Below are positions 20,678 through 32,000 of a DNA stretch of 32,000 nt, piece after piece. A program made the position numbers and the translations under genes. Every line of letters starts with the position of its first letter. Within the stretch, counting starts at the first letter, position 1. The notes beneath the pieces are model-generated. The model was not told the origin of the DNA. It did no database searches and saw nothing but the letters and a program-made list of their open reading frames with translations. This stretch comes from Raphidiopsis brookii D9. Lineage in GTDB: Bacteria > Cyanobacteriota > Cyanobacteriia > Cyanobacteriales > Nostocaceae. The stretch covers positions 54,084-86,083 of the forward strand of contig ACYB01000019.1 in NCBI GenBank assembly GCA_000175855.1. Direction: 5' to 3'.

Positions 20678-23098
20678 TTAACCACTAAGAAGACCTATTA
20701 TTCTATCCTCTGTAGAACATCCTTCAATCAGTTCCCGAAAATAGTCATTTAATGACCTCTCACGGCTGATTGTTTGCAGAATAATTCTATCATTTTGAAA
20801 ATGATTAATTACTGCTTGCGCCAATGCAATTTCCTGGGAACCAGTTTGACAGAAGTTATTATTGTAAGCACGAAAAGTCAAGAGATAAATTAGGGATAAA
20901 AAAGCATTCTGCTTATATTGAGGATCCAAGTCTTGATAATTTCTACTGAGTAAATAATTAAGAATTTTTATAAAGTGTTCCTGATAATTTAGAGAGATTG
21001 AAGCAACATTAAAATCAAAATTATAGTACCAAAGTAAAATTCTGCCATATCCCCATAGATATTTTTCCAGATTATACATGGAATCAAATAACATGAAATA
21101 CCTATCCTGCAATTCTTGACTTACTGCAATTCTAGAGAAACACTGTAGATACTCATTTGATAAACCGTTATCATACCTGGTATAAAGACATCTTAATTGG
21201 GATAGAGAAAATAATCGATCTAATAGCAGATTCTGCGAACATATATATTGGGAGAATCGATACAATTTGCCAGTGAAAATTATTAAACTAAGCAGTAAAC
21301 CTCTTTCATAAGAATTTAGTCTTCTTCTATGGCGATCGCATGCAGAAAACACTTTAGATATTAAATTAATCATTCTATGGAGTTGAGCATTTTCCAACTG
21401 TTGGGCCAACAGAGTAACATTGGGATCATGGGATGAGATATCTACAAACTGTAGTAAATCAGGTTGTTGACTTAGGCATTGATAAGCATTTCTAAAACTA
21501 GCAGTTAACTCCTCATACTGATTCCTAGATTGATCCAGTCCAGTGGCAATTGCATTTAAATAAGTGGGGAAATCTTGAAACCTATGATTAACTGTCAATC
21601 GCCCAATTTGGGATAAAGATCTTTGTTGACGATTTTGATTAATGTTTTCAGGTGGAATATAACTGTAAAATGTACTTTCACTATGTCTATCCACCAAACT
21701 AGTTTGAATAATGTACTGATTATCCAAATCCCTAACGATCAATTTAGGAAAAGATCCTGGTTGTAAACGAAAATTAATCTGAACTAAAATCTCTTGAGGA
21801 TTTTCATTATCTTCATAGTTTTGAATTTCAATTTTATAGTCTTGAGGAATACCATTTATGCAGTAATCACTATCATTTACCCTGATAGGTAATTTGGCAA
21901 TTCTTGTCCCACTGGGAATTCTCATAAAATCCTGATTTCTATTAGGAATACTTCCCACTAATACCGTTTCTCTCCCCTCAAAAGAAATAGCATCTCTTTC
22001 CTCCGATAGTTGAATCCAGACCTCCTGATTATCAATAGCGATAGCAAATTCAATTGTATCCAGATAAATACCAAACAGAGGGAAACCTTGTCTATTTCTA
22101 TCTATCCATAGTTCTGAAAAGTTTTGAATATTGGGTTTAAGCACCATAAACCTAGATAAGTCTTGATCACTTACTTGTGGTCTTAATCTCTCAAAAATAT
22201 TATATTGACCAACTAACACAAACTGATATTGGGAGTACTGATGGGCAATTTGATTGAGTGGAGCAAGATTAATTTGTCGATAAACGACTTCGGCAATGTC
22301 TAATATGCTGACGGTAATTCGTTTATAAAAAATCTCCTGATTATGGTATATTTCAATAATCAAACTGATGGACTTCTCATCAATATGAGATTGAACTATT
22401 TTGAAAAAGTTAATTCTCTGTAAATAATTAGATAAATGGCTAATGGTTTCCAGGTTATTTGACAATTCAGGAAACTGTCTTAAAAAGATTCTTGATATCT
22501 GAGAACATATCTGATTATATATTGCTTGACAATCATAGTTATTACTAAATGGAATTCTATTTCTGGTGTCGAGAATAGGAATTAAATGGGGAGTATTTTC
22601 TTGTCTTTGAAAACTAACAGGAATCAAAGTAGAAGTATCAAAACTGTCCAAATCGACAAATACTAGTGGTTGATAAGATTGACTACGAGCTTGATATTCA
22701 GAAATTTCCCCATAGTGGTTCCAATAATGATAAGCACTAGCATATAAATATCCATCCCTAGATCCAATAATATTACTCATACTCAAAGTCAATAAATCCA
22801 ATGTATCACTGACTATATATAGACGCTCCTTGTCCCCTGTAAATAATTCAATTCCCAGGTGAAGATAATCTGGTTCTTGTGGGTTATCTTGTAGGTGACT
22901 AGTATTAGTAGTTAAATGAGATGGAAGATCATTATTAGCTACTGGTGCAGATAAATAGGGGTAAGCAGAATACCTATCCAAAATCCTAGTTTTATACTCT
23001 TGGCTGGATTGGGGGATTATTGCTTCAGATGTACCTCCAAACTGATGAGCATACTCACAAGCATCAATATAAGATTGCAAATTAAATAACTTAGTCAT
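20678..23098 (-). CDS. Large hypothetical protein (806 aa), last gene of the island; function unknown
   Basis: ATG 23098 preceded by AAGGAA, 14 nt after the PLD stop. N/Q/Y/I-rich. I see no P-loop, HKD, PD-(D/E)xK or other motif. Contains the only perfect HIP1 site in the island (21332-21339). A 37-nt piece of its 3' end recurs at 31356-31392. Confidence 0.7.
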   Translation of the reverse strand: MTKLFNLQSYIDACEYAHQFGGTSEAIIPQSSQEYKTRILDRYSAYPYLSAPVANNDLPSHLTTNTSHLQDNPQEPDYLHLGIELFTGDKERLYIVSDTLDLLTLSMSNIIGSRDGYLYASAYHYWNHYGEISEYQARSQSYQPLVFVDLDSFDTSTLIPVSFQRQENTPHLIPILDTRNRIPFSNNYDCQAIYNQICSQISRIFLRQFPELSNNLETISHLSNYLQRINFFKIVQSHIDEKSISLIIEIYHNQEIFYKRITVSILDIAEVVYRQINLAPLNQIAHQYSQYQFVLVGQYNIFERLRPQVSDQDLSRFMVLKPNIQNFSELWIDRNRQGFPLFGIYLDTIEFAIAIDNQEVWIQLSEERDAISFEGRETVLVGSIPNRNQDFMRIPSGTRIAKLPIRVNDSDYCINGIPQDYKIEIQNYEDNENPQEILVQINFRLQPGSFPKLIVRDLDNQYIIQTSLVDRHSESTFYSYIPPENINQNRQQRSLSQIGRLTVNHRFQDFPTYLNAIATGLDQSRNQYEELTASFRNAYQCLSQQPDLLQFVDISSHDPNVTLLAQQLENAQLHRMINLISKVFSACDRHRRRLNSYERGLLLSLIIFTGKLYRFSQYICSQNLLLDRLFSLSQLRCLYTRYDNGLSNEYLQCFSRIAVSQELQDRYFMLFDSMYNLEKYLWGYGRILLWYYNFDFNVASISLNYQEHFIKILNYLLSRNYQDLDPQYKQNAFLSLIYLLTFRAYNNNFCQTGSQEIALAQAVINHFQNDRIILQTISRERSLNDYFRELIEGCSTEDRIIGLLSG

Positions 23099-23112: not shown

Positions 23113-24291
23113 TTATCGTAATAAGTAAAGTTGGTTAATAAGTTGGTTAATTTTATTAACATCAGTGGTTTTATACATTAAATCATATAGGGTCGAATTA
23201 GAGTTAGAATTATAATATGAATTAAAACTAAAATTAATTCCCCCGATATAAGCTACTCGATTGCCTAAGATGGTAATCTTAGCATGGAGATTATCAACAG
23301 CGTGAAAGTTCTCAAGATTAAATCTTTCGATATAAAACCTTCGATTGTTTTCAGATACACTAGAATTAATAAAAACACTGGTATTTGAATTTAGATAAAC
23401 TGCCATTTCCTGTGAAGGTTTGAAATCACGACTGTAAATTCTGACCTCCATATCTCGTGGAAGATTGCGCCAATTTTCGACCACGTCCCTTTGATATTGC
23501 GCTGGAGTTAAAAAGTTTGATTCTACGGAAAATTCAGCGCCATATCTCTTTTGGGGAGAATACATCACAGAACGTAATCTAAAACCGCAACCGTTAGGCT
23601 CAGGAAAGACTTGATATTTGCTCCGGGTGTACCAAAAAGTTTGAAAAAAATTAATCAAATTTTGATGTTCAAAATTATTACTAAAAATTATTCCCGCCTC
23701 CTTATTAAAATCTAAACTTCCTCGTGTGAGATTAGAGGAACCTAAATAAGCGGAGCGATCAGAAATATAGGTTTTTAAATGAAAAGCACCACTCCGAATA
23801 GATACATTACTATTCAACAGCATTTTCAAACAAGATTTTTTCCGTTCATCACTTATTCTATATCTTTCTGGAATGCTAATATGTTCTAATATCTGTTCAT
23901 CAATACGATCTAAAAGCTCATTGTTCAAATCTGTTAAAATCCAGACTCCTTTTGGTAACTCTAATGATTTTTGACAAATTAATTCTGTTAATTCTTCATC
24001 CTCTATAATATAACTAGAGACCAGTAGAAATTCACTAGCTTCCTGAATGATTTTGTAAATAGTATCCCGACTTTTACCATGATTTCTACCATTATGAATT
24101 ACAAATTCAAATTGGGAACCATGGGTAGTATCTGGTTGTAATTCACTGGGTAAGTTTATGGTTGGATATATGTGACGCTCATGTCTTGACCGATATTGTT
24201 CGACTAAATAACTAACATCCTCTGACAAAGTTGATATGTGGTCTTGCTGGGTATTATCTCTTATATGACTATCTTCATTTAAGCGCAGCAA
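23113..24291 (-). CDS. Phospholipase D (HKD)-family nuclease-like protein, two PLD repeats
   Basis: First motif HLKTYISDRSAYLGSSN (His codon 23779-23781) fits HxK(x)4D..GSxN. Second motif HAKITILGNRVAYIGGIN has HxK but Gly in place of Asp. The track start is TTG, and there is no in-frame ATG until residue 157. Confidence 0.8.
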   Translation of the reverse strand: MLRLNEDSHIRDNTQQDHISTLSEDVSYLVEQYRSRHERHIYPTINLPSELQPDTTHGSQFEFVIHNGRNHGKSRDTIYKIIQEASEFLLVSSYIIEDEELTELICQKSLELPKGVWILTDLNNELLDRIDEQILEHISIPERYRISDERKKSCLKMLLNSNVSIRSGAFHLKTYISDRSAYLGSSNLTRGSLDFNKEAGIIFSNNFEHQNLINFFQTFWYTRSKYQVFPEPNGCGFRLRSVMYSPQKRYGAEFSVESNFLTPAQYQRDVVENWRNLPRDMEVRIYSRDFKPSQEMAVYLNSNTSVFINSSVSENNRRFYIERFNLENFHAVDNLHAKITILGNRVAYIGGINFSFNSYYNSNSNSTLYDLMYKTTDVNKINQLINQLYLLR

Positions 24292-24397
24292 TGTAATAGC
24301 AGATCTTAAGGTTAAAGATAATTCGTCTACAGAAATCCAAATCTTGACTTTTTGATGAGTTTCATTTGATAGATAACAATCCCAATTGATAAAAAAA

Positions 24398-24949
24398 TTA
24401 ACTCAATTCATGAGATTTTAAAGCATAATCTATTTTTTCAATATCAGATAATTTTTGCCAGTATTGCCAACTATTATTCCATATTATCTGTATAAAATCT
24501 AAGTTTAGATCTGGATAGTTAGGTTCTGAAATTGTTATAATGTAACTTCCCATCTGTTCACAAACATCACTTGAAAAAACTGGGAGTTGTGGATCCCTAG
24601 GTGTTAGATTCAGATTTCCCTGTTCACAGATAAAATTATAGGCATATTGATAAATATCCAAGTTATCCAATTGAGATTTTAGGGGTTTTAATAATTTCAG
24701 AGGTGGTACTTGGTAAATATCACTTTCCTTAGTAACACCACGGGAATTCTTGCATAAGTTAATTAGCACCGGTTCCGGAATGAAATCTAACCCAAAAGAC
24801 TGACGTAACAATTGAGGTGTTCTGCGGTGATATCGTGTTCCTATTGCTTGTACCTCATGGATTAAATGGTTTAAAGTCCTGGGTATAACTTCTGTTGCAT
24901 TTAACAGTGACCTTGCAAATTTTCCCGATAGTTCAATTTGAATTTTCAT
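24398..24949 (-). CDS. Hypothetical protein (183 aa)
   Basis: ATG-initiated ORF on the same strand as the island genes, with about 105-125 nt gaps on either side. No recognisable motif. Confidence 0.5.
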   Translation of the reverse strand: MKIQIELSGKFARSLLNATEVIPRTLNHLIHEVQAIGTRYHRRTPQLLRQSFGLDFIPEPVLINLCKNSRGVTKESDIYQVPPLKLLKPLKSQLDNLDIYQYAYNFICEQGNLNLTPRDPQLPVFSSDVCEQMGSYIITISEPNYPDLNLDFIQIIWNNSWQYWQKLSDIEKIDYALKSHELS

Positions 24950-25073: not shown

Positions 25074-26787
25074 CTAAATAACAACTTGAGTTTCTATAGA
25101 TAAAGAGGATTGATATAATAGTGATCTGATGGGAGAACGAGATTCCTGCCATAAAACATGATCACCAACTAAAAATAGCTGATCTTTTGCTCTTGTCAGT
25201 GCTATGTTAATATCTTCCAAGGCAATATTGTTAGGACCACCAGAACAAGCAGTCATACAATTCACAATGATAATTCTTCTTTCCGCACCACTCCATTCTT
25301 TGGCTGTACCAATAAATATGGGACTAAATTGAGGATGGTTTGCAGTTAAAACCTCCCTGAGATTATCTCTCTGTGTTTCAGAAAATGTAATGATGCCAAT
25401 TTCCGAGATAATTTCTGAACTCAGAGTCTGAGTCAAGTTTTCTACGAGTTCGTAAATTTTCTCTCCGACTGATTGACTTACCGTCAACCTTTCAGACATA
25501 TTTTTCCAAGTTACTCCCCTGGCAATTTGACTCAGATTAGAAACATTATAATCAATATTGGGGTAATGAGTATATACCCAATGATCACAAATAACAGGAT
25601 AAACTGTCTCAGCTATTTTTGGATGTAGTCTAAACTGTTCTCGCAATTTGTAAACATAAGCTGGAGACAAGTTTTCTTGCAACCATTGAAAACAGTTAAA
25701 AAACTTACCGGAAAAAAGAATTTCTTCTAGAATTATGATTTTCTTGATGTTGTTGTATGTGTGAATAACATGAAAAATATCTTCTGGGGATATCCTCACC
25801 AAATAACACCAGTTTTTGACACAATCCTGATAAAAAGATTAATTCTCTCCAATTCAGAAGATTCGCTTCCTCCACTATGATCAAATCAAAATCACTATCC
25901 CATAAAGGTTTATTTTCCAGTTGCATAAAGTCAGAAACAGTTCCCATAATAGTCACCTGCGGATTTGCCACAAGTTGATTGGCAAGTTCTTCAATTTCTA
26001 CTTCCGAAAGATTGTTATAAATTTGCATCAATCTTAACTGCTCTTGAAGAAAAGGTAATAATTGCTGGAGACGATGGGCCAATAATTGTAACCGGGGCTC
26101 TGCTAGATGGGCAAATTCTGTAAATTCGGATCGTAATATTTCCATTATTTGCTCATTTGTTTTATCTACAATTTCTGGCAATAATGTCTCTAATATAGCT
26201 GGTGTTCTCAACTTGGCTAATTCTCCGTCTGGTAATAAATATAATGGCAAATAGTCCATTCTTGTTCGCGCCAAATTATGCAGGATATGATCCCGTAACT
26301 GATTTACCATCCGTTGAGAATAATTTTCTTGTTGAGACAATAAAAATGGATAAGTTGTGAGATTGTAATAGGGGTTTAAAGATGCCAAATTATGAGCTAA
26401 AATCAAAACCTTATAGGAACAGTCTATAGCAGCTTGGACAAGATTTTTGGCAATAGCAGTTTTTCCCGTTGCTGCTGTTCCAGAAATCAGAGTAATAGGG
26501 CTATTGGAAAGGGCCATTTCTAGCGCTATTTGTTGACTTGCACTGAGAAAGGTTTTATATTTAATGGAAGGAAAGTTTAAAGATGCTCTCTTCTGTGAAT
26601 AATATCCTTGGTTACATAGTGTTTCGATGATTAAATTTGTGGGTAATGATGGAGAGTTATAAATATAGTTATAAATTTCGACCAGTTTTTCCGATTGTGC
26701 TTGGCTAATTGGTGAAATTTCATCTGATTCATATATTAAATTTTGTAATTGCTGTCGTAAGTTTTGTCTAGTAATTCTATTAGTCAT
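25074..26787 (-). pseudogene. Superfamily-1 helicase, Upf1/DNA2 (AAA_11/AAA_12)-like, split by a frameshift
   Basis: Track ORFs 25705..26787 and 25074..25802 overlap by 98 nt in different frames. The N part has Walker A GTAATGKT (26458-26481) and Walker B DLIIVEEA. The C part has LREQFRLHPKI (YRMHP-like), TAKEWSGAERRIIIV (QG.E-like) and NIALTRAKDQLFLVGD. Its start overlaps the stop of the 125-aa ORF (ATGA). Confidence 0.8.
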
Positions 26788-27161
26788 AATGTAAATCCTC
26801 CAACTACTTCAATTAAGGTATTAAAAATTATTTCCACTGTTTGAGAAAATCCCTGTTCTGTAAAATTCTCAGGTAACTTTACCAATCTCAAGTTGGGGAA
26901 TAGTTCCTCATAGCTTGGACTATCATCTAGACTATAATTTTGAGTGTGATCTTGTAAATATAAGACTATTGCTCCGGCGAATAAACCATTATTTTCTAAT
27001 TCCTGATTCCTTAAATTATGCAAATAATAATAACCCATTTGATTGATTACATCTCGACTGGGAAGATACCAAAATACCCAGATAGGAAATTGTAACTTAT
27101 TGGAATTTAGCTCCATGGAATCTAGCTGATGAATTTCTAAAGTCAACATCCAATCACCCAT
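26784..27161 (-). CDS. Hypothetical 125-aa ORF (possibly the detached C-terminal part of the McrC-like gene)
   Basis: ATG 27161, with no convincing RBS. Its reading frame is open upstream to 27218 and overlaps the end of the preceding fragment. Its stop overlaps the helicase start. Confidence 0.45.
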   Translation of the reverse strand: MGDWMLTLEIHQLDSMELNSNKLQFPIWVFWYLPSRDVINQMGYYYLHNLRNQELENNGLFAGAIVLYLQDHTQNYSLDDSPSYEELFPNLRLVKLPENFTEQGFSQTVEIIFNTLIEVVGGFTL

Positions 27162-27181
27162 TGCTATATTAGACGGTTTTT

Positions 27182-28407
27182 CTAACCCAAATACACAAAC
27201 CCGGGTTTGTAAAACACCCTAACCTTAATATTTTGATCTGGACTTAGATAACGTCCCTGGTCAGGAATTAACTTGCAGCTCACACCTACGGTTGGATCTA
27301 TATTTACCCCTTGTAATCTTAGCAGACCGACTATCAAATAAATATAGATAGCATCTGCCAACAAATAATTTCTAAACCCCACAAATTCTCTTTTTCATGC
27401 TTTTTTCGTATGTATTCCAAATAAGCTTGATAAAAACTCTTGTATATGGTATTTTGCTGTAAAACATAATTTGGCTTGGTGAATTGATAACCTCTGTTTT
27501 GAATAGTCTTAACTGTTGGCAGTTGTTGAAATAAATCAATTACTAATCTGATTTTGTTAATTTGTGATCTAAACTGATTAGCGTTACTTATTTCATATTG
27601 AACACAATTCAAATGGAAAATTCGGGCAAAATAAACCAGGAATTTATTTTCAGGGGTGTTGAAATCTTGATAGCGTTTAATACCCATAAGTTCTTGTTTT
27701 GAACCTGCTTTTTCTTCAGGAGTTGAGCCAGGTCTGCGAATATAATCACGTAAACAATAACTATCCATCTCCTGAATTTTACCCACAGGAATAAGTTCCG
27801 CTTTTCTTGTAAGTTGATGACGCAATCTAGAACCGATTAATTCTAATTTTTGATGCAGTTGATATTTGTTATCTAAACTAATGACAATTGGCAAATTAGC
27901 GTCTTCTATATTTACAGAGTCTAGTTTTTGGGATAGTCCACTCAGTAAAATATTAGCTTCAGAGTTGATCCTAGTTGTTCCACTAGATATATGTGTAAAC
28001 ATGCCAATAAATAACCGGACTAATTCGGATGCTGTTCTATCCAAACGATTTCCTAATCTGTGTTCCCATTCCGGGATTTCCACTTCTTCTTTAATCGTTT
28101 CTAAGTCTAAAACATCAGTAATAGATAAATTATAGCCTTGTCCGGGAATTGCCAAACTTAACACATATCTTAAACTTGCATGATGGTCATGATCATAGTG
28201 TAAATCAGTTGGTTGTAAGTAAGGAAATCCCACCTCATAAATTCCTTGACTAATGGGAATAAACCAAGATGGTAGGGATAGAAGTTCATCTTCATCTAAT
28301 TCCAGTACAAGAATTGGACGGTGACTAGCTTCCAGGGCGAAAATATCTGATATCAGGGGAGATTGATGTTGATTAAGATAAGCAAACAAACTGGGATATA
28401 TTCTCAT
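27182..28407 (-). pseudogene. McrC-like / DUF2357-type partner of the McrB-like NTPase, apparently frameshifted
   Basis: Track ORFs 27334..28407 and 27182..27382 overlap by 49 nt. The start ATG shares one base with the upstream stop (TAATG at 28405-28409). The internal block RYQDFNTPENKFLVYFARIF resembles the (D)TPEN(R)F signature of McrC/DUF2357 proteins. The second fragment contains YLSPDQNIKV, a possible PD motif of a PD-(D/E)xK fold. Confidence 0.6.
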
Positions 28408-30521
28408 TATGCTTCCTCATCCTCATACACCAAACCTTGCCAACTAAATTGTCCGTAACGTCCTTCTTTGGCTTTGTCAAAAGCCTTAATCAATGGTTGG
28501 TCATTGATTTTATCGATAATTTCCTTCATTTCTTGCAGTTGTTGATGTGCTTCATCAACCATCACACCCCGTAATTTTGGCAATAATTTTTGTCCAAACT
28601 GATCCGCAAGAGCAAATTTAAAGGACTCGGAATCAATACCATTAACTTCTGGATAGTTAACAACATATTGAGCAATAGCTTGATATACACGATGGGCGAA
28701 GGGATGTCCCATTTTTTCCATGACTTTATTGGCTTCATTCAGGTAAGATTCGACCTCTTTAACCACATCCGATTCAGGAACTGGAGTTCTCACCCAGTTT
28801 TGAAAATCAGAATAGGTTACGTAACTGGAATCCCGATTATTAACCAGATTATCAGAATGTTGATTAACAGTTATTTGTTGACCCGATCTTTGACGCAATT
28901 TTAAATTTTGGGGTCTACCAAAAGTTAAAACATTTGCTTTATCCAAGACCTTATCTGACAAGGTTTGTGTAGTTTCATCCTCATTCATGGTTCCCACAAA
29001 TAAAAAGGCTTTAGGAATTTCTAACCGCCGTTCGCTTTCAGCAATTGGCAGACTACCAACATCGATTTCTAAATAGGTGGCATGATTGCGACGACTTTCT
29101 AATTTAGACAAGAACTCACTGAAATAATATTCTACCCTAGCCAAGTTCATTTCATCCAGTAATACTATAACTATTCTATTACTCATTTCTGGATCTTTAT
29201 ACTGATAGAGTCCTCTCATTAATTGGGTGGGTTTAAATTTCTTTTCCAGATAGTTATAAAACCCCTGTAAATCTTGAGGAGAATCCCAGCGTGGTTGTAC
29301 AGCTAATGTGAGTAATTGGGCTCCAATATAATTGGCGTATCTTTGGGGAAGTTCACTTTTACCGGTACCACTAATACCCGCTAAAATCACTAGAGCAGAA
29401 ATATCTTGTACCTTTAAAGATGTATGAAAAGCCTTAATTGTTCGGCTTGAAAAACTTAATCCTTCACTCCTGAGACTGGTAATAAAGTTTTGTATAAACT
29501 GGGTTTCTCCTTCTAGTTGTCTAACTTGTCTAGGTAAGTTGGTCCATAATTTCTCCCGTAAAGGTTCTAGGGCAACTCTACCACTATTTTCTATCTCTCT
29601 AATTTCTCCTCTGAGGTTGGCAATTGTTGTCTCAATCTCCAGTTTTGTTTGCTGTAAGTTATCAGTTTCAGTTTGTAGGTTATGATTCCTAGTTTGTAAA
29701 TTATTTCCTTCGTTTTCCAATTCTCTTAATCTTGATTCTTGATCTCTAATGGTTAGTGTTAAGCTACGGTATTGTTCTCTTAATTCTATCAGTTTTTGAT
29801 AGTTATTTTGATTTTCCTCAATAGTTTGTAAAATCCGCTGTTTCTCTAATTCTAATCTGTCTATTTCAGGGTTTAGTTGACTCACTTTTGCTTCATAATC
29901 TTGTTTTTGACTAAGAATTGCATCATAGGTAAAACGTAATAGTTCTAATTCAGCAGCACGTTGTTCCAATTCCTGAGACTGATTTGTTAGTTCTTGAACC
30001 CGTGCATTTAACCTATTTAAATCAGCTTTTTGAGAAACTATTTGTGACTCAACCGAATTAAGTTGTAATCTTTTAGAGTCTAAAGATTCGACTTGAGAGT
30101 TGAGTTGTGTAATTCTTGCTTCTAAATTGTTTCTATCAATTGTAGATTCTTCAATACTAGTACGCAGTGACCTTAAGTCAGCTTTAGATGCTTCAATTCT
30201 TCGTCCGAGTTCTTCCAATTCAGACAAATTGGGATTTTCCTGATTAATTACACGAATACAATTTTCCAGTTTTTGTTTTTCTTGTGTCAGAGTGGCGATC
30301 GTTTTATTGAGTTTTTTTTCCTCCAACTTACTGACAACAGAAGCTCCCATGATTGCTCCTGTGGTAATTCCCAATACTCCCACTCCAATTCTTCCAGTAA
30401 TACCACCCACACCAGCGATACTAATTCCAAATATAATACCACAGCTAAGCCCACCAACTATCATCCAATCTTTCATATTAATCAATACCTTTTTGAATGT
30501 AAAAGTAACTGTTTGTAGCAA
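28407..30521 (-). CDS. McrB-like AAA+ (AAA_5) NTPase with N-terminal glycine-zipper membrane segment and long coiled coil
   Basis: P-loop GISGTGKS (29355-29378). LAVQPRWDSPQDLQGFYN, Walker B VLLDEMNLARVEYYFSEFLS and FVGTMNEDE are all arranged as in McrB-family GTPases. Residues ~18-65 are Gly/Ile/Val-rich (GxxxG spacing). Residues ~66-345 are heptad-like and Q/E/L/N/R-rich. The track start is TTG 30521, and ATG 30476 (MKDWMIVGG) is more likely. Confidence 0.8.
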   Translation of the reverse strand: MLQTVTFTFKKVLINMKDWMIVGGLSCGIIFGISIAGVGGITGRIGVGVLGITTGAIMGASVVSKLEEKKLNKTIATLTQEKQKLENCIRVINQENPNLSELEELGRRIEASKADLRSLRTSIEESTIDRNNLEARITQLNSQVESLDSKRLQLNSVESQIVSQKADLNRLNARVQELTNQSQELEQRAAELELLRFTYDAILSQKQDYEAKVSQLNPEIDRLELEKQRILQTIEENQNNYQKLIELREQYRSLTLTIRDQESRLRELENEGNNLQTRNHNLQTETDNLQQTKLEIETTIANLRGEIREIENSGRVALEPLREKLWTNLPRQVRQLEGETQFIQNFITSLRSEGLSFSSRTIKAFHTSLKVQDISALVILAGISGTGKSELPQRYANYIGAQLLTLAVQPRWDSPQDLQGFYNYLEKKFKPTQLMRGLYQYKDPEMSNRIVIVLLDEMNLARVEYYFSEFLSKLESRRNHATYLEIDVGSLPIAESERRLEIPKAFLFVGTMNEDETTQTLSDKVLDKANVLTFGRPQNLKLRQRSGQQITVNQHSDNLVNNRDSSYVTYSDFQNWVRTPVPESDVVKEVESYLNEANKVMEKMGHPFAHRVYQAIAQYVVNYPEVNGIDSESFKFALADQFGQKLLPKLRGVMVDEAHQQLQEMKEIIDKINDQPLIKAFDKAKEGRYGQFSWQGLVYEDEEA

Positions 30522-30909: not shown

Positions 30910-31050
30910 ATGGCGCGTCTAGCATTGCTGAGTGTATCAAACAAAACAAATATAATTAATCTGGCTCGAACCCTAGTAGAAGAATTTGATTTTGATATCA
31001 TCAGTAGTGGAGGAACTGCTAAAACCCTCAAAAATCCTGGGATACCTGTA
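30910..31050 (+). pseudogene. purH: purH 5' fragment (bifunctional AICAR transformylase/IMP cyclohydrolase, first ~47 codons only)
   Basis: [47 protein letters not shown] matches the PurH MGS-like N-terminus. Similarity stops after GIPV, and the ORF then reads through unrelated sequence to a stop at 31104. Confidence 0.7.
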
Positions 31051-31081
31051 AATGGCAGGTTGTTACTAAAGTTAAACCTAC

Positions 31082-31357
31082 TCCAGATTGACGAGTTCCC
31101 ATGACCTCTCCTGGACCGCGAAAGCGCATATCCATTTCAGAAATAAAAAACCCATCTTGTGACTGCTCTAAAACCTTCAATCGTTGTTGAGCATCCGGGT
31201 TTCTGGAACTACTCATTAAGAGAAAATAGGACTGGGCCATACCTCTACCTACGCGCCCCCGTAGTTGGTGTAACTGGGATAGTCCAAATCTCTCCGCATG
31301 TTCAATTAACATAACAGTAGCATTAGGTACGTCTACCCCTACTTCTACCACAGTAGC
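31082..31357 (-). pseudogene. recG: recG 3' fragment (SF2 helicase motifs V-VI region only)
   Basis: Track ORF 31028..31351 reads (T)[37 protein letters not shown]...[17 protein letters not shown], which is the RecG C-terminal helicase core. The upstream ~600 codons and the normal C-terminal tail are both missing. An in-frame TAA lies immediately upstream. Confidence 0.75.
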
Positions 31358-31392
31358 TGATTATTTGCAGAATAATTCTATCATTTTGAAAA
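31356..31392 (-). repeat. 37-nt duplicate of the 3' region of the 806-aa gene
   Basis: GCTGATTaTTTGCAGAATAATTCTATCATTTTGAAAA matches 20765-20801 with one mismatch. In the intact gene this encodes HFQNDRIILQTIS. Confidence 0.85.
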
Positions 31393-32000
31393 GGTCTTCC
31401 AATTCAGGTAAATTGGGATTTTGTTGATTAATGACAAGAACGCGATGTTCCAATTCCAGGGACTGATTTGTTAATTCCTGAACCCGTGCGTCTAACCTAT
31501 TTAAATCAACTTGTTGAGAAACTATTTGCGACTCAATCGAATTAAGTTCTAAGCTTTTAGAGTCTCTTCTGGATTCTAAAGATTCAACTTGAGAGTTGAG
31601 TTGTGTAATTCTTGCTTCTAAATTGTTTCTATCAATGGTAGATTCTTCAATACTAGTACGCAGTGACCTTAAGTCAGCAGCACGTTGTTCTAATTCCTGA
31701 GACTGATTTGTTAGTTCTTCAATCCGCGCGTCTAACCTATTTAAATCAGCTTGTTGAGAAACTATTTGCGACTCAACCGAATTAAGTTCTAATCTTTTAG
31801 AGTCTAAAGATTCAACTTGAGAGTTGAGTTGTGTAATTCTTGCTTCTAAATTGTTTCTATCAATTGTAGATTCTTCAATACTAGTACGCAGTGACCTTAA
31901 GTCAGCAGCACATTGTTCTAATTCCTGAGACTGATTTGTTAGTTCTTCAATCCGCGCGCCTAACCTATTTAAATCAGCTTGTTGAGAAACTATTTGCAGC
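31361..32000 (-). pseudogene. Partial coiled-coil ORF paralogous to the N-terminal half of the McrB-like gene; open to the window edge, with a chimeric 3' end
   Basis: Not in the supplied track because it is open at the right edge. My translation of the minus strand is ..ADLRSLRTSIEESTIDRNNLEARITQLNSQVESLDSKRLELNSVESQIVSQQADLNRLDARIEELTNQSQELEQRA (repeated) ..LELEHRVLVINQQNPNLPELEDLFKMIELFCK*, with stop TAA at 31361-31363. The last ~12 codons are the 806-gene fragment read out of frame. Confidence 0.6.
31449..32000 (-). repeat. In-frame tandem repeat, 228-bp (76-codon) unit, about 2.4 copies visible
   Basis: Unit starts at 31675 and 31903 (period 228). The first copy (~31449-31674) carries a 12-nt in-frame insertion. 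Unit 31675-31902 differs from 29951-30178 of the intact gene at about 10 positions by my hand alignment. Confidence 0.85.

Follow-up and report, generated by a model that had tools for sequence, protein, structure and literature searches.

The window, by which we mean the whole analysed stretch of 32,000 nt from Raphidiopsis brookii D9 (contig ACYB01000019.1), ends within a tandem array of long in-frame coding units. Very probably, this array belongs to a Type III-C CoCoNuT locus in which two cnuB genes lie in tandem, and makes up the membrane-proximal coiled coil of the upstream one, cnuB#1; this gene would persist here as a relic, and its modules would vary in number by recombination. CoCoNuTs are predicted McrBC-derived anti-phage systems, in which a coiled coil is fused to a McrB-like GTPase with a shortened signature, NxD instead of NxxD (Bell et al., eLife 2024, PMC11090510). 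We observed the repeat, the truncation of the gene that carries it, patches joined to the broken end, differences in copy number between assemblies, and mosaic divergence in the adjacent intact cnuB.

Tandem array of coiled-coil modules

Only one strong array was detected by Tandem Repeats Finder (TRF); it spans 31446-31997 (score 902; period 228 with 2.4 copies and 91% matches) and is by far the top repeat of the window. An independent repeat finder returned copies 31565-31769 and 31793-31997, spaced by 228 nt and 97% identical (families D1-D3). Six-frame translation revealed that the minus-strand frame (first codon base 31999) is open from the window edge to a TAA codon at 31361-31363. These results confirm the 228-nt in-frame array on the minus strand that had been proposed in the initial annotation, and such an array is far beyond chance.

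31446-32000, minus strand: coiled-coil modules of 228/240 nt (76/80 aa) in tandem, 2.4 copies of which fall within the window before its edge interrupts the array (TRF, unit identities)

The partial unit 31903-31999 differs from unit 31675-31902 at 2 of 96 positions. The latter differs from 31435-31674 at 17 positions, plus a 12-nt indel, and from the unit of the intact gene (29951-30178) at 10 of 228 (95.6% identity), a figure that agrees with the approximately ten mismatches estimated initially. Its exact translation is the 76-residue unit peptide given at that time, and a hidden Markov model (HMM) of the unit supported the statement that the intact cnuB has exactly one unit. As for the third unit, the reported 12-nt in-frame insertion is present (cttctggattct at 31567-31578) and makes this unit a 240-nt (80-aa) variant; its bounds had to be corrected from ~31449-31674 to 31435-31674, the last codons of the unit entering the linker.

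Hydrophobic autocorrelation produced peaks at 7, 14 and 21 residues and also at 38 and 80, and heptad phase tracking showed a shift of +3 per 38 residues. It follows from this shift that each 76-aa module is built of two 38-aa halves, each comprising five heptads and a discontinuity of three residues. In the 80-aa variant, the insertion of 4 aa coincides exactly with the discontinuity in the middle of the unit and brings back an uninterrupted run of heptads, 86 residues long.

Truncation of the array-bearing gene

The window was compared with six related loci (L001-L006), obtained by exact-protein look-up. In two sister Cylindrospermopsis strains, the array sits within a full-length upstream gene, cnuB#1 (914 and 1320 aa). 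The order of genes in GCA_026929835.1 is recG, purH (opposite strand), cnuB#1 (914 aa), cnuB#2 (833 aa), cnuC, cnuH, cnuE, cnuD and recF (the last named, in the sister loci, from the orthologous window open reading frame, ORF). The same order was found in GCA_002027345.1 (L003), with a cnuB#1 of 1320 aa and a cnuB#2 of 683 aa. Within the 1320-aa cnuB#1, the stretch L003 7076-7697 is collinear with the window array at 96.1% identity; identity reaches 99.6% between the last unit of the array and L003 7414-7653. The initial annotation had recognized a second, partial copy of the coiled-coil gene; this collinear match identifies that copy as the orthologue of the upstream paralogue cnuB#1. Derivation of the array from the single unit of the intact gene was rejected on account of the sequence differences and of the orthology of the array with cnuB#1.

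31361-31999, minus strand: open frame of a 3'-truncated cnuB#1 remnant; 212 codons are visible, the stop is TAA at 31361-31363 and the last 9 codons (FKMIELFCK) are foreign (six-frame translation, comparison with P0001 and L003 cnuB#1)
31392-31455, minus strand: linker segment HRVLVINQQNPNLPELEDL, the start of the next higher-order repeat, with the breakpoint at its end; it recurs at residues ~76, ~240 and ~646 of L003 cnuB#1

The window edge is not all that makes this copy partial: its 3' end lies inside the window and is truncated. Homology to cnuB#1 ends right after ...VINQQNPNLPELEDL and the frame closes 9 codons further on. The full-length cnuB#1 proteins (P0001, L003) run on through ...PELEDLMLKIGAS... 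to the GTPase domain; where they read ...PELEDLMLKIGASTIERATLEG..., the window copy reads ...PELEDLFKMIELFCK and stops. The array-bearing copy therefore has neither the distal coiled coil nor the GTPase domain, the latter being what we required of a functional cnuB, and for this reason the view that the two paralogues differ mainly in the number of their modules does not hold.

A further claim concerned a permuted order of segments, with the VINQxNPNLxELExL segment preceding the unit in the intact gene and following the units in the partial copy. The two segments (30208-30271 and 31392-31455) are 81% identical. The permutation was rejected, as the linker ...VLVINQQNPNL(S/P)ELE... occurs two or three times in each full-length sister cnuB#1, with the periodicity of a higher-order repeat, and the break in the window copy falls where the next super-unit begins.

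Judged from its reading frame, the relic cannot make a GTPase, and it is probably non-functional. Should the system still be active, its working cnuB is the one-module gene at 28407-30476.

Several searches were directed at the relic and at the sequence beyond it. Exact-product look-ups (689-aa and 704-aa cnuB, the cnuC ORF, CRD_01128) returned no record. No match was obtained in scans of genome collections with a degenerate unit pattern and with the cnuB#1 N-terminal protein, in scans of metagenomes for the relic/cnuD junction and for a conserved 23-mer of the unit, or among plasmids. A protein search with the 212-aa relic peptide found two unrelated fragments only.

Module number in related strains

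Searching with the unit profile revealed that the number of modules differs both between the paralogues, as had been stated, and among strains:

1 module: intact gene of the window, P0005, P0006
2 modules: P0004, P0007
3 modules: P0003, P0123
4 modules: P0001
9 modules: the 1320-aa cnuB#1 of L003

The loci are 98.6-98.9% identical outside the coiled coil. The modules thus form a protein-coding variable number tandem repeat, with head-to-tail units of 228 or 240 nt (both multiples of 3) and a count of 1 to 9 among close relatives. The number of cnuB genes per strain is one or two.

The single cnuB of C. raciborskii CENA303 (L005, GCA_002114155.1) encodes 828 aa; its 5' part resembles cnuB#1 (97%) and its 3' part cnuB#2 (97.5%). 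The purH-cnuB intergenic region of this strain contains an insertion of ~707 bp (L005 8940-9646) with a 90-aa ORF, whose product has a signal-peptide-like start and Lys/Pro-rich short repeats (KPEATKKPE...).

In two loci, L004 (1-2600) and L006 (position 1), the cnuB array is where the draft assembly stops or contains a doubtful junction. We considered three cnuB copies in L004 and rejected this possibility, since the contig end and the internal junction both correspond to window position 29028, which suggests an assembly tangle. As the array breaks or distorts short-read assemblies, caution is needed with the CnuB lengths given in databases, which can depend on the assembly.

Probable recombination between modules and paralogues

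The synonymous divergence (pS) between the window cnuB and the L003 cnuB#2 was 0.17-0.19 in residues 51-174 and 0-0.008 in the other ~515 codons. It is thus ~20x higher in the membrane-proximal coiled coil (30023-30326) than in the rest of 28407-30476, with a sharp mosaic boundary at ~30182. The ratio of nonsynonymous to synonymous divergence (pN/pS) in residues 51-174 was 0.43-0.80 (two comparator strains). An excess of pS that is localized in this way implies that residues 51-174 are of different ancestry and do not simply evolve faster.

The unit of the intact gene and the array unit 31675-31902 are each other's best match (95.6%, vs at most 93.8% to the units of five other strains) and share the NSVESQ variant. 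Two 240-nt units of L003 are identical, and the single gene of CENA303 is a fusion of the two paralogues. The mosaic pS, the mutual best-match units and this fusion bear out the earlier suggestion that the repeats are a recombination substrate.

Neighbouring modules are 88-100% identical over 228-240 nt, and because of this, unequal homologous recombination or replication slippage would add or remove whole modules in frame. Recombination would also swap segments between the two paralogues, which would explain both the range of 1 to 9 modules per gene and the presence of one or two cnuB genes. We infer this mechanism from the patterns described above.

Length changes of this kind are found well beyond these loci. 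Among 125 cyanobacterial CnuB representatives, 18 contain recent internal duplications that arose independently, at offsets of 76 to 293 residues; one of them, a Limnospira CnuB, contains an exact 87-aa duplication. In-frame duplication is thus a recurrent source of length change in the CnuB coiled coil. The median length of full-length CnuB homologues is 746 aa (range 608-1036), against 1320 aa for the L003 cnuB#1. The duplicated units measured 80, 87, 94, 105, 162, 167, 188 and 293 aa (P0053, P0016, P0089, P0056, P0058, P0014, P0026 and others), and the hosts were Limnospira, Dolichospermum, Mastigocoleus and uncultured cyanobacteria.

The number of modules might itself be adaptive, serving as a ruler that sets the distance between a membrane anchor and the GTPase/nuclease motor, or as a means of escape from phage inhibitors. 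The occurrence of 1-9 modules in loci that are otherwise 98-99% identical would fit this idea, as would the preservation of the frame in every variant, the placement of the 4-aa insertion exactly on a heptad discontinuity with the register restored, and the independent recurrence of duplications of other unit sizes in cyanobacterial CnuB. However, recombination of whole units preserves the frame automatically, so that in-frame variants are no proof of selection on length, and together with simple purifying selection it accounts for what is seen. The pN/pS of the module region is below 1 (0.43-0.80), the copy numbers come from draft assemblies, and a literature search found no experimental study of a CoCoNuT. 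We therefore consider an adaptive module number unlikely: length changes are frequent and tolerated, and the data do not show selection.

Patches downstream of the breakpoint

The DNA between the relic and the intact cnuB is a mosaic of short segments:

31356-31392, minus strand: 37-nt patch from the 3' region of cnuD (window 20765-20801), with 1 mismatch; junctions share 1-3 nt (exact 12-mer tracing)
31078-31356, minus strand: internal fragment of recG, 279 nt, ~codons 681-773 of 829; 98.6% identical to L001 7529-7807 and L003 3250-3528, in an annotated gene for an 829-aa RecG
31049-31082, plus strand: internal patch of purH, 34 nt, an exact match to L001 8350-8383 inside purH; AGTAG microhomology with the recG fragment
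30910-31049, plus strand: 5' fragment of purH, 140 nt, first ~47 codons (translation; window 31049-30183 aligns to L001 9410-10297 and L003 5131-6017)
30477-30909: native purH-cnuB divergent intergenic region, between the purH fragment and the intact cnuB

The premature stop of the relic is supplied by the 37-nt cnuD patch. Tracing with 12-mers and BLAST of the pieces showed that the patches stand in their native relative order and orientation, and that the joints share 1-5 nt only. The mosaic was absent from all four sister loci that cover the region.

The simplest history that we can infer begins with a tandem duplication of ~16 kb, from within recG to near the end of cnuD, the junction of which would be the cnuD-to-recG joint. 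Later, deletions mediated by microhomology would have left little of the system's first copy or of the duplicated recG and purH. Alternatively, one event of replication template switching with several jumps could have produced the same structure. Duplication followed by decay is the most economical of these histories. Both predict that more modules, the 5' end of cnuB#1 and then intact purH and recG lie beyond position 32000. As the fragments of purH and recG in the window are truncated, intact copies of these genes must exist elsewhere.

Could the truncated gene nevertheless be functional, specifying a membrane-anchored, coiled-coil-only protein that pairs with the coils of CnuB, CnuC, CnuD, CnuH or CnuE? 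Its 203 visible codons up to the breakpoint are open and have regular heptads, and a separate coiled-coil protein, CnuA, has been described in other subtypes, and interactions of subunits through their coils were proposed (PMC11090510). In contrast, the frame ends in an accidental read-through of 9 codons into the 37-nt cnuD patch, within a mosaic that the four sister loci do not have. The relic also carries a unique R-to-C change at a conserved position of the module and shows a pN/pS of ~1, cnuC, cnuH and cnuE look frameshifted in D9, and the start codon and promoter are outside the visible sequence. Taken together, these points make a functional product improbable.

It is quite improbable, too, that the relic is kept as something useful, either as a silent reservoir of modules that resets the stalk of the neighbouring cnuB or as a CnuA-like partner that tunes assembly, the module number being adaptive and switching fast against cyanophages.

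That the array, or the whole partial copy, is an assembly artefact made of mis-joined reads from the single unit of the intact gene is highly improbable: in the 454 draft of R. brookii D9 repeats are unresolved, and other drafts break or tangle at the array, but there are 10 to 19 substitutions and a 12-nt indel between the units of the array and that of the intact gene, the array is collinear (96-99.6%) with cnuB#1 of an independently assembled strain, including the 80-aa variant and the P-variant linker, and the junctions with foreign DNA share 1-5 nt only, whereas mis-assemblies join at long shared repeats. The short homology at the junctions, and the fact that the array was not copied from the intact unit, make an artefact unlikely, although the number of modules could still be collapsed.

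Some observations weigh against the interpretation of the array as the recombining coiled coil of a decayed cnuB#1. The copy numbers were taken from draft assemblies, in which L003 has exact repeats of >400 nt and two assemblies break inside the array. The D9 genome was obtained from 454 reads, and its authors state that repeats tend to collapse, so absolute counts may be wrong. The history of duplication and decay is a reconstruction for which no intermediate was found. The 5' end of the relic is beyond the window, where an intact start, and with it expression of a coiled-coil-only protein, may exist. Finally, the pN/pS of ~1.1 between the relic and its L003 orthologue is based on only 12 differences and is a weak sign of decay.

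Intact cnuB and the CoCoNuT locus

The intact cnuB is followed on the minus strand by the other genes of the locus:

28407-30476, minus strand: intact cnuB, 689 aa from ATG, with a Gly-rich hydrophobic N-terminus, a helix of ~250 residues and a McrB-like AAA+ GTPase (Pfam AAA_5, PADLOC PDC-M26A)
29951-30178, minus strand: the one 76-aa module of the intact cnuB (residues 99-174), found as a single HMM domain
26784-28407, minus strand: cnuC (McrC-like, DUF2357), in three ORFs owing to two 1-bp deletions (~27380, ~27214) relative to the 541-545-aa sister genes; intact in L001-L006
25074-26787, minus strand: cnuH (UPF1-like superfamily 1 helicase), split by a 1-bp insertion at ~25707 (Pfam AAA_11/AAA_12, NCBIfam IGHMBP2-family helicase)
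23113-24949, minus strand: cnuE, coding for two PLD nuclease domains and interrupted by a 1-bp insertion at ~24401 (Pfam PLDc_2 and PLDc); 611 aa in sister strains
20678-23098, minus strand: candidate cnuD, 806 aa, last gene of the operon and source of the 37-nt patch; position and size fit Type III-C

Type III-C systems consist of CnuB, CnuC, the helicase CnuH, the two-PLD CnuE and a separate CnuD, a Hsp70-like protein with nucleotide-binding and substrate-binding domains plus HEAT-like repeats, and occur mainly in Cyanobacteriota (PMC11090510). The order cnuB-C-H-E-D and every feature that we tested place the locus in Type III-C by sequence, with CnuD as a candidate identified by position and size. 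The cyanobacterial host fits the distribution given in the same source.

The Walker A motif of CnuB is GISGTGKS and the NxD motif is MNEDE (residues 497-501), in which N498, E499, D500 and E501 are invariant among 46 cyanobacterial homologues; NxD in CnuB is usually followed by E or D (PMC11090510). One source labels a cluster member "McrB family protein". In the AlphaFold2 (AF2) model, residues 85-307 form an unbroken helix (mean predicted local distance difference test score 70.6). The coiled coil has heptad periodicity and matched the families of SMC, Rad50 and crescentin. A Foldseek search with the model returned generic AAA+ matches only, none McrB-specific, and a profile search of PDB sequences returned coiled-coil proteins only. 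The intact CnuB is identical to P0002, and its C-terminal 519 residues are identical to CRD_01128 of R. brookii D9.

Residues 1-48 of CnuB (30333-30476) form a conserved Gly-rich double hydrophobic segment (MKDWxIVGGLSCG...GVGVLGxTTGAIxGA), whose composition suggests a membrane hairpin. This segment had no match in Pfam, and the confidence of AF2 in it was low. The coiled coil of the intact gene also contains a small in-frame repeat at 29653-29704 (minus strand; TRF period 21), in which the 21-nt unit equals one heptad (NHNLQTE); there is one copy fewer here than in L003, P0004 and P0005.

In cnuC, whose start overlaps the stop of cnuB, DUF2357 was matched above the gathering score (E 2.8e-8). 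For cnuH the AAA_12 match (4e-17) passes the cutoff, and the AAA_11 match (2.8e-4, 21.2 bits) is below the cutoff of 27. In the 392-aa ORF of cnuE, residues 80-220 matched PLDc_2 and residues 333-357 a PLDc active-site motif. The candidate cnuD (803-806 aa across strains) had no match in Pfam, NCBIfam, PADLOC or PDB sequences; relative to L003 it carries an in-frame 15-nt insertion at ~21193 and a 6-nt deletion at ~21063.

The 1-bp indels of cnuC, cnuH and cnuE are located at short homopolymers (G5 to G4, T5 to T4, extra T's), and the three genes are intact in all sister strains. Either the system is decaying in D9, or these disruptions are homopolymer errors of 454 pyrosequencing.

Comparison with known systems

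The locus is of a described kind, a Type III-C CoCoNuT, with some undescribed details, and the mechanism proposed for its variation is ordinary. With the published Type III-C systems it shares the coiled coil at the N-terminus of a NxD McrB-like GTPase, followed by DUF2357, a UPF1-like helicase, a double-PLD protein and a large fifth gene, in a cyanobacterial host (PMC11090510). It differs from them as published in the tandem pair of cnuB genes found in some strains, the Gly-rich hydrophobic N-terminus, the variation of modules of 76-80 aa, and the decay of one copy to a relic. The main text of PMC11090510 contains no mention of "tandem repeat" or "paralog", nor of CnuB together with "membrane" or "transmembrane". 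In a literature search, the Cnu names for these proteins were found only in Bell et al. and its preprint.

As in the McrBC system of E. coli (Type IV restriction), an AAA_5 GTPase and a partner of the McrC family are encoded one directly downstream of the other. E. coli McrB has an N-terminal DNA-binding domain and NxxD, whereas CnuB has a coiled coil and NxD. If expressed, the relic would resemble the CnuA proteins of Types I-B and III-B in providing a coiled-coil-only product beside cnuB/cnuC; in contrast to cnuA, which is a conserved gene, it is strain-specific and ends in an accidental read-through.

A search of the literature for coiled coils with similarly variable repeats found nothing relevant. 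The M proteins of streptococci and the alpha C protein of group B streptococcus (246-bp repeats) are size-variable surface proteins, in which the number of units differs between isolates through homologous recombination. Like the array, these Gram-positive surface proteins consist of long (~230-250 bp), near-identical in-frame units and are elongated proteins of variable length. The streptococcal proteins are secreted antigens under immune selection, whereas CnuB belongs to a predicted defence system and is either cytoplasmic or anchored in the membrane.

In Neisseria, silent pilS cassettes act as donors to pilE in antigenic variation. The likeness lies in a truncated, promoter-distal paralogue that adjoins the expressed gene and shares recombining segments with it. 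However, we found no evidence of programmed or frequent conversion and no dedicated recombination signal, and there is only one relic.

CoCoNuTs, of which coiled coils are the hallmark, are known from computational prediction only. Natural cnuB alleles with 1 to 9 modules and a conserved hydrophobic N-terminus offer a ready-made series for studies of stalk length or membrane tethering in defence. If the coil is a straight helix, each module would measure ~11 nm (an estimate from 76 residues at ~0.15 nm per residue). The locus also illustrates the remodelling of a defence island by tandem paralogues and long in-frame repeats, through fusion of paralogues, truncation and patches joined at microhomologies.

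Outside the CoCoNuT locus, the tRNA-Leu (CAG) gene at 399-482 overlaps the listed start of an ORF for a SpoU-type rRNA methyltransferase (443-1303), the true start of which is probably further downstream.

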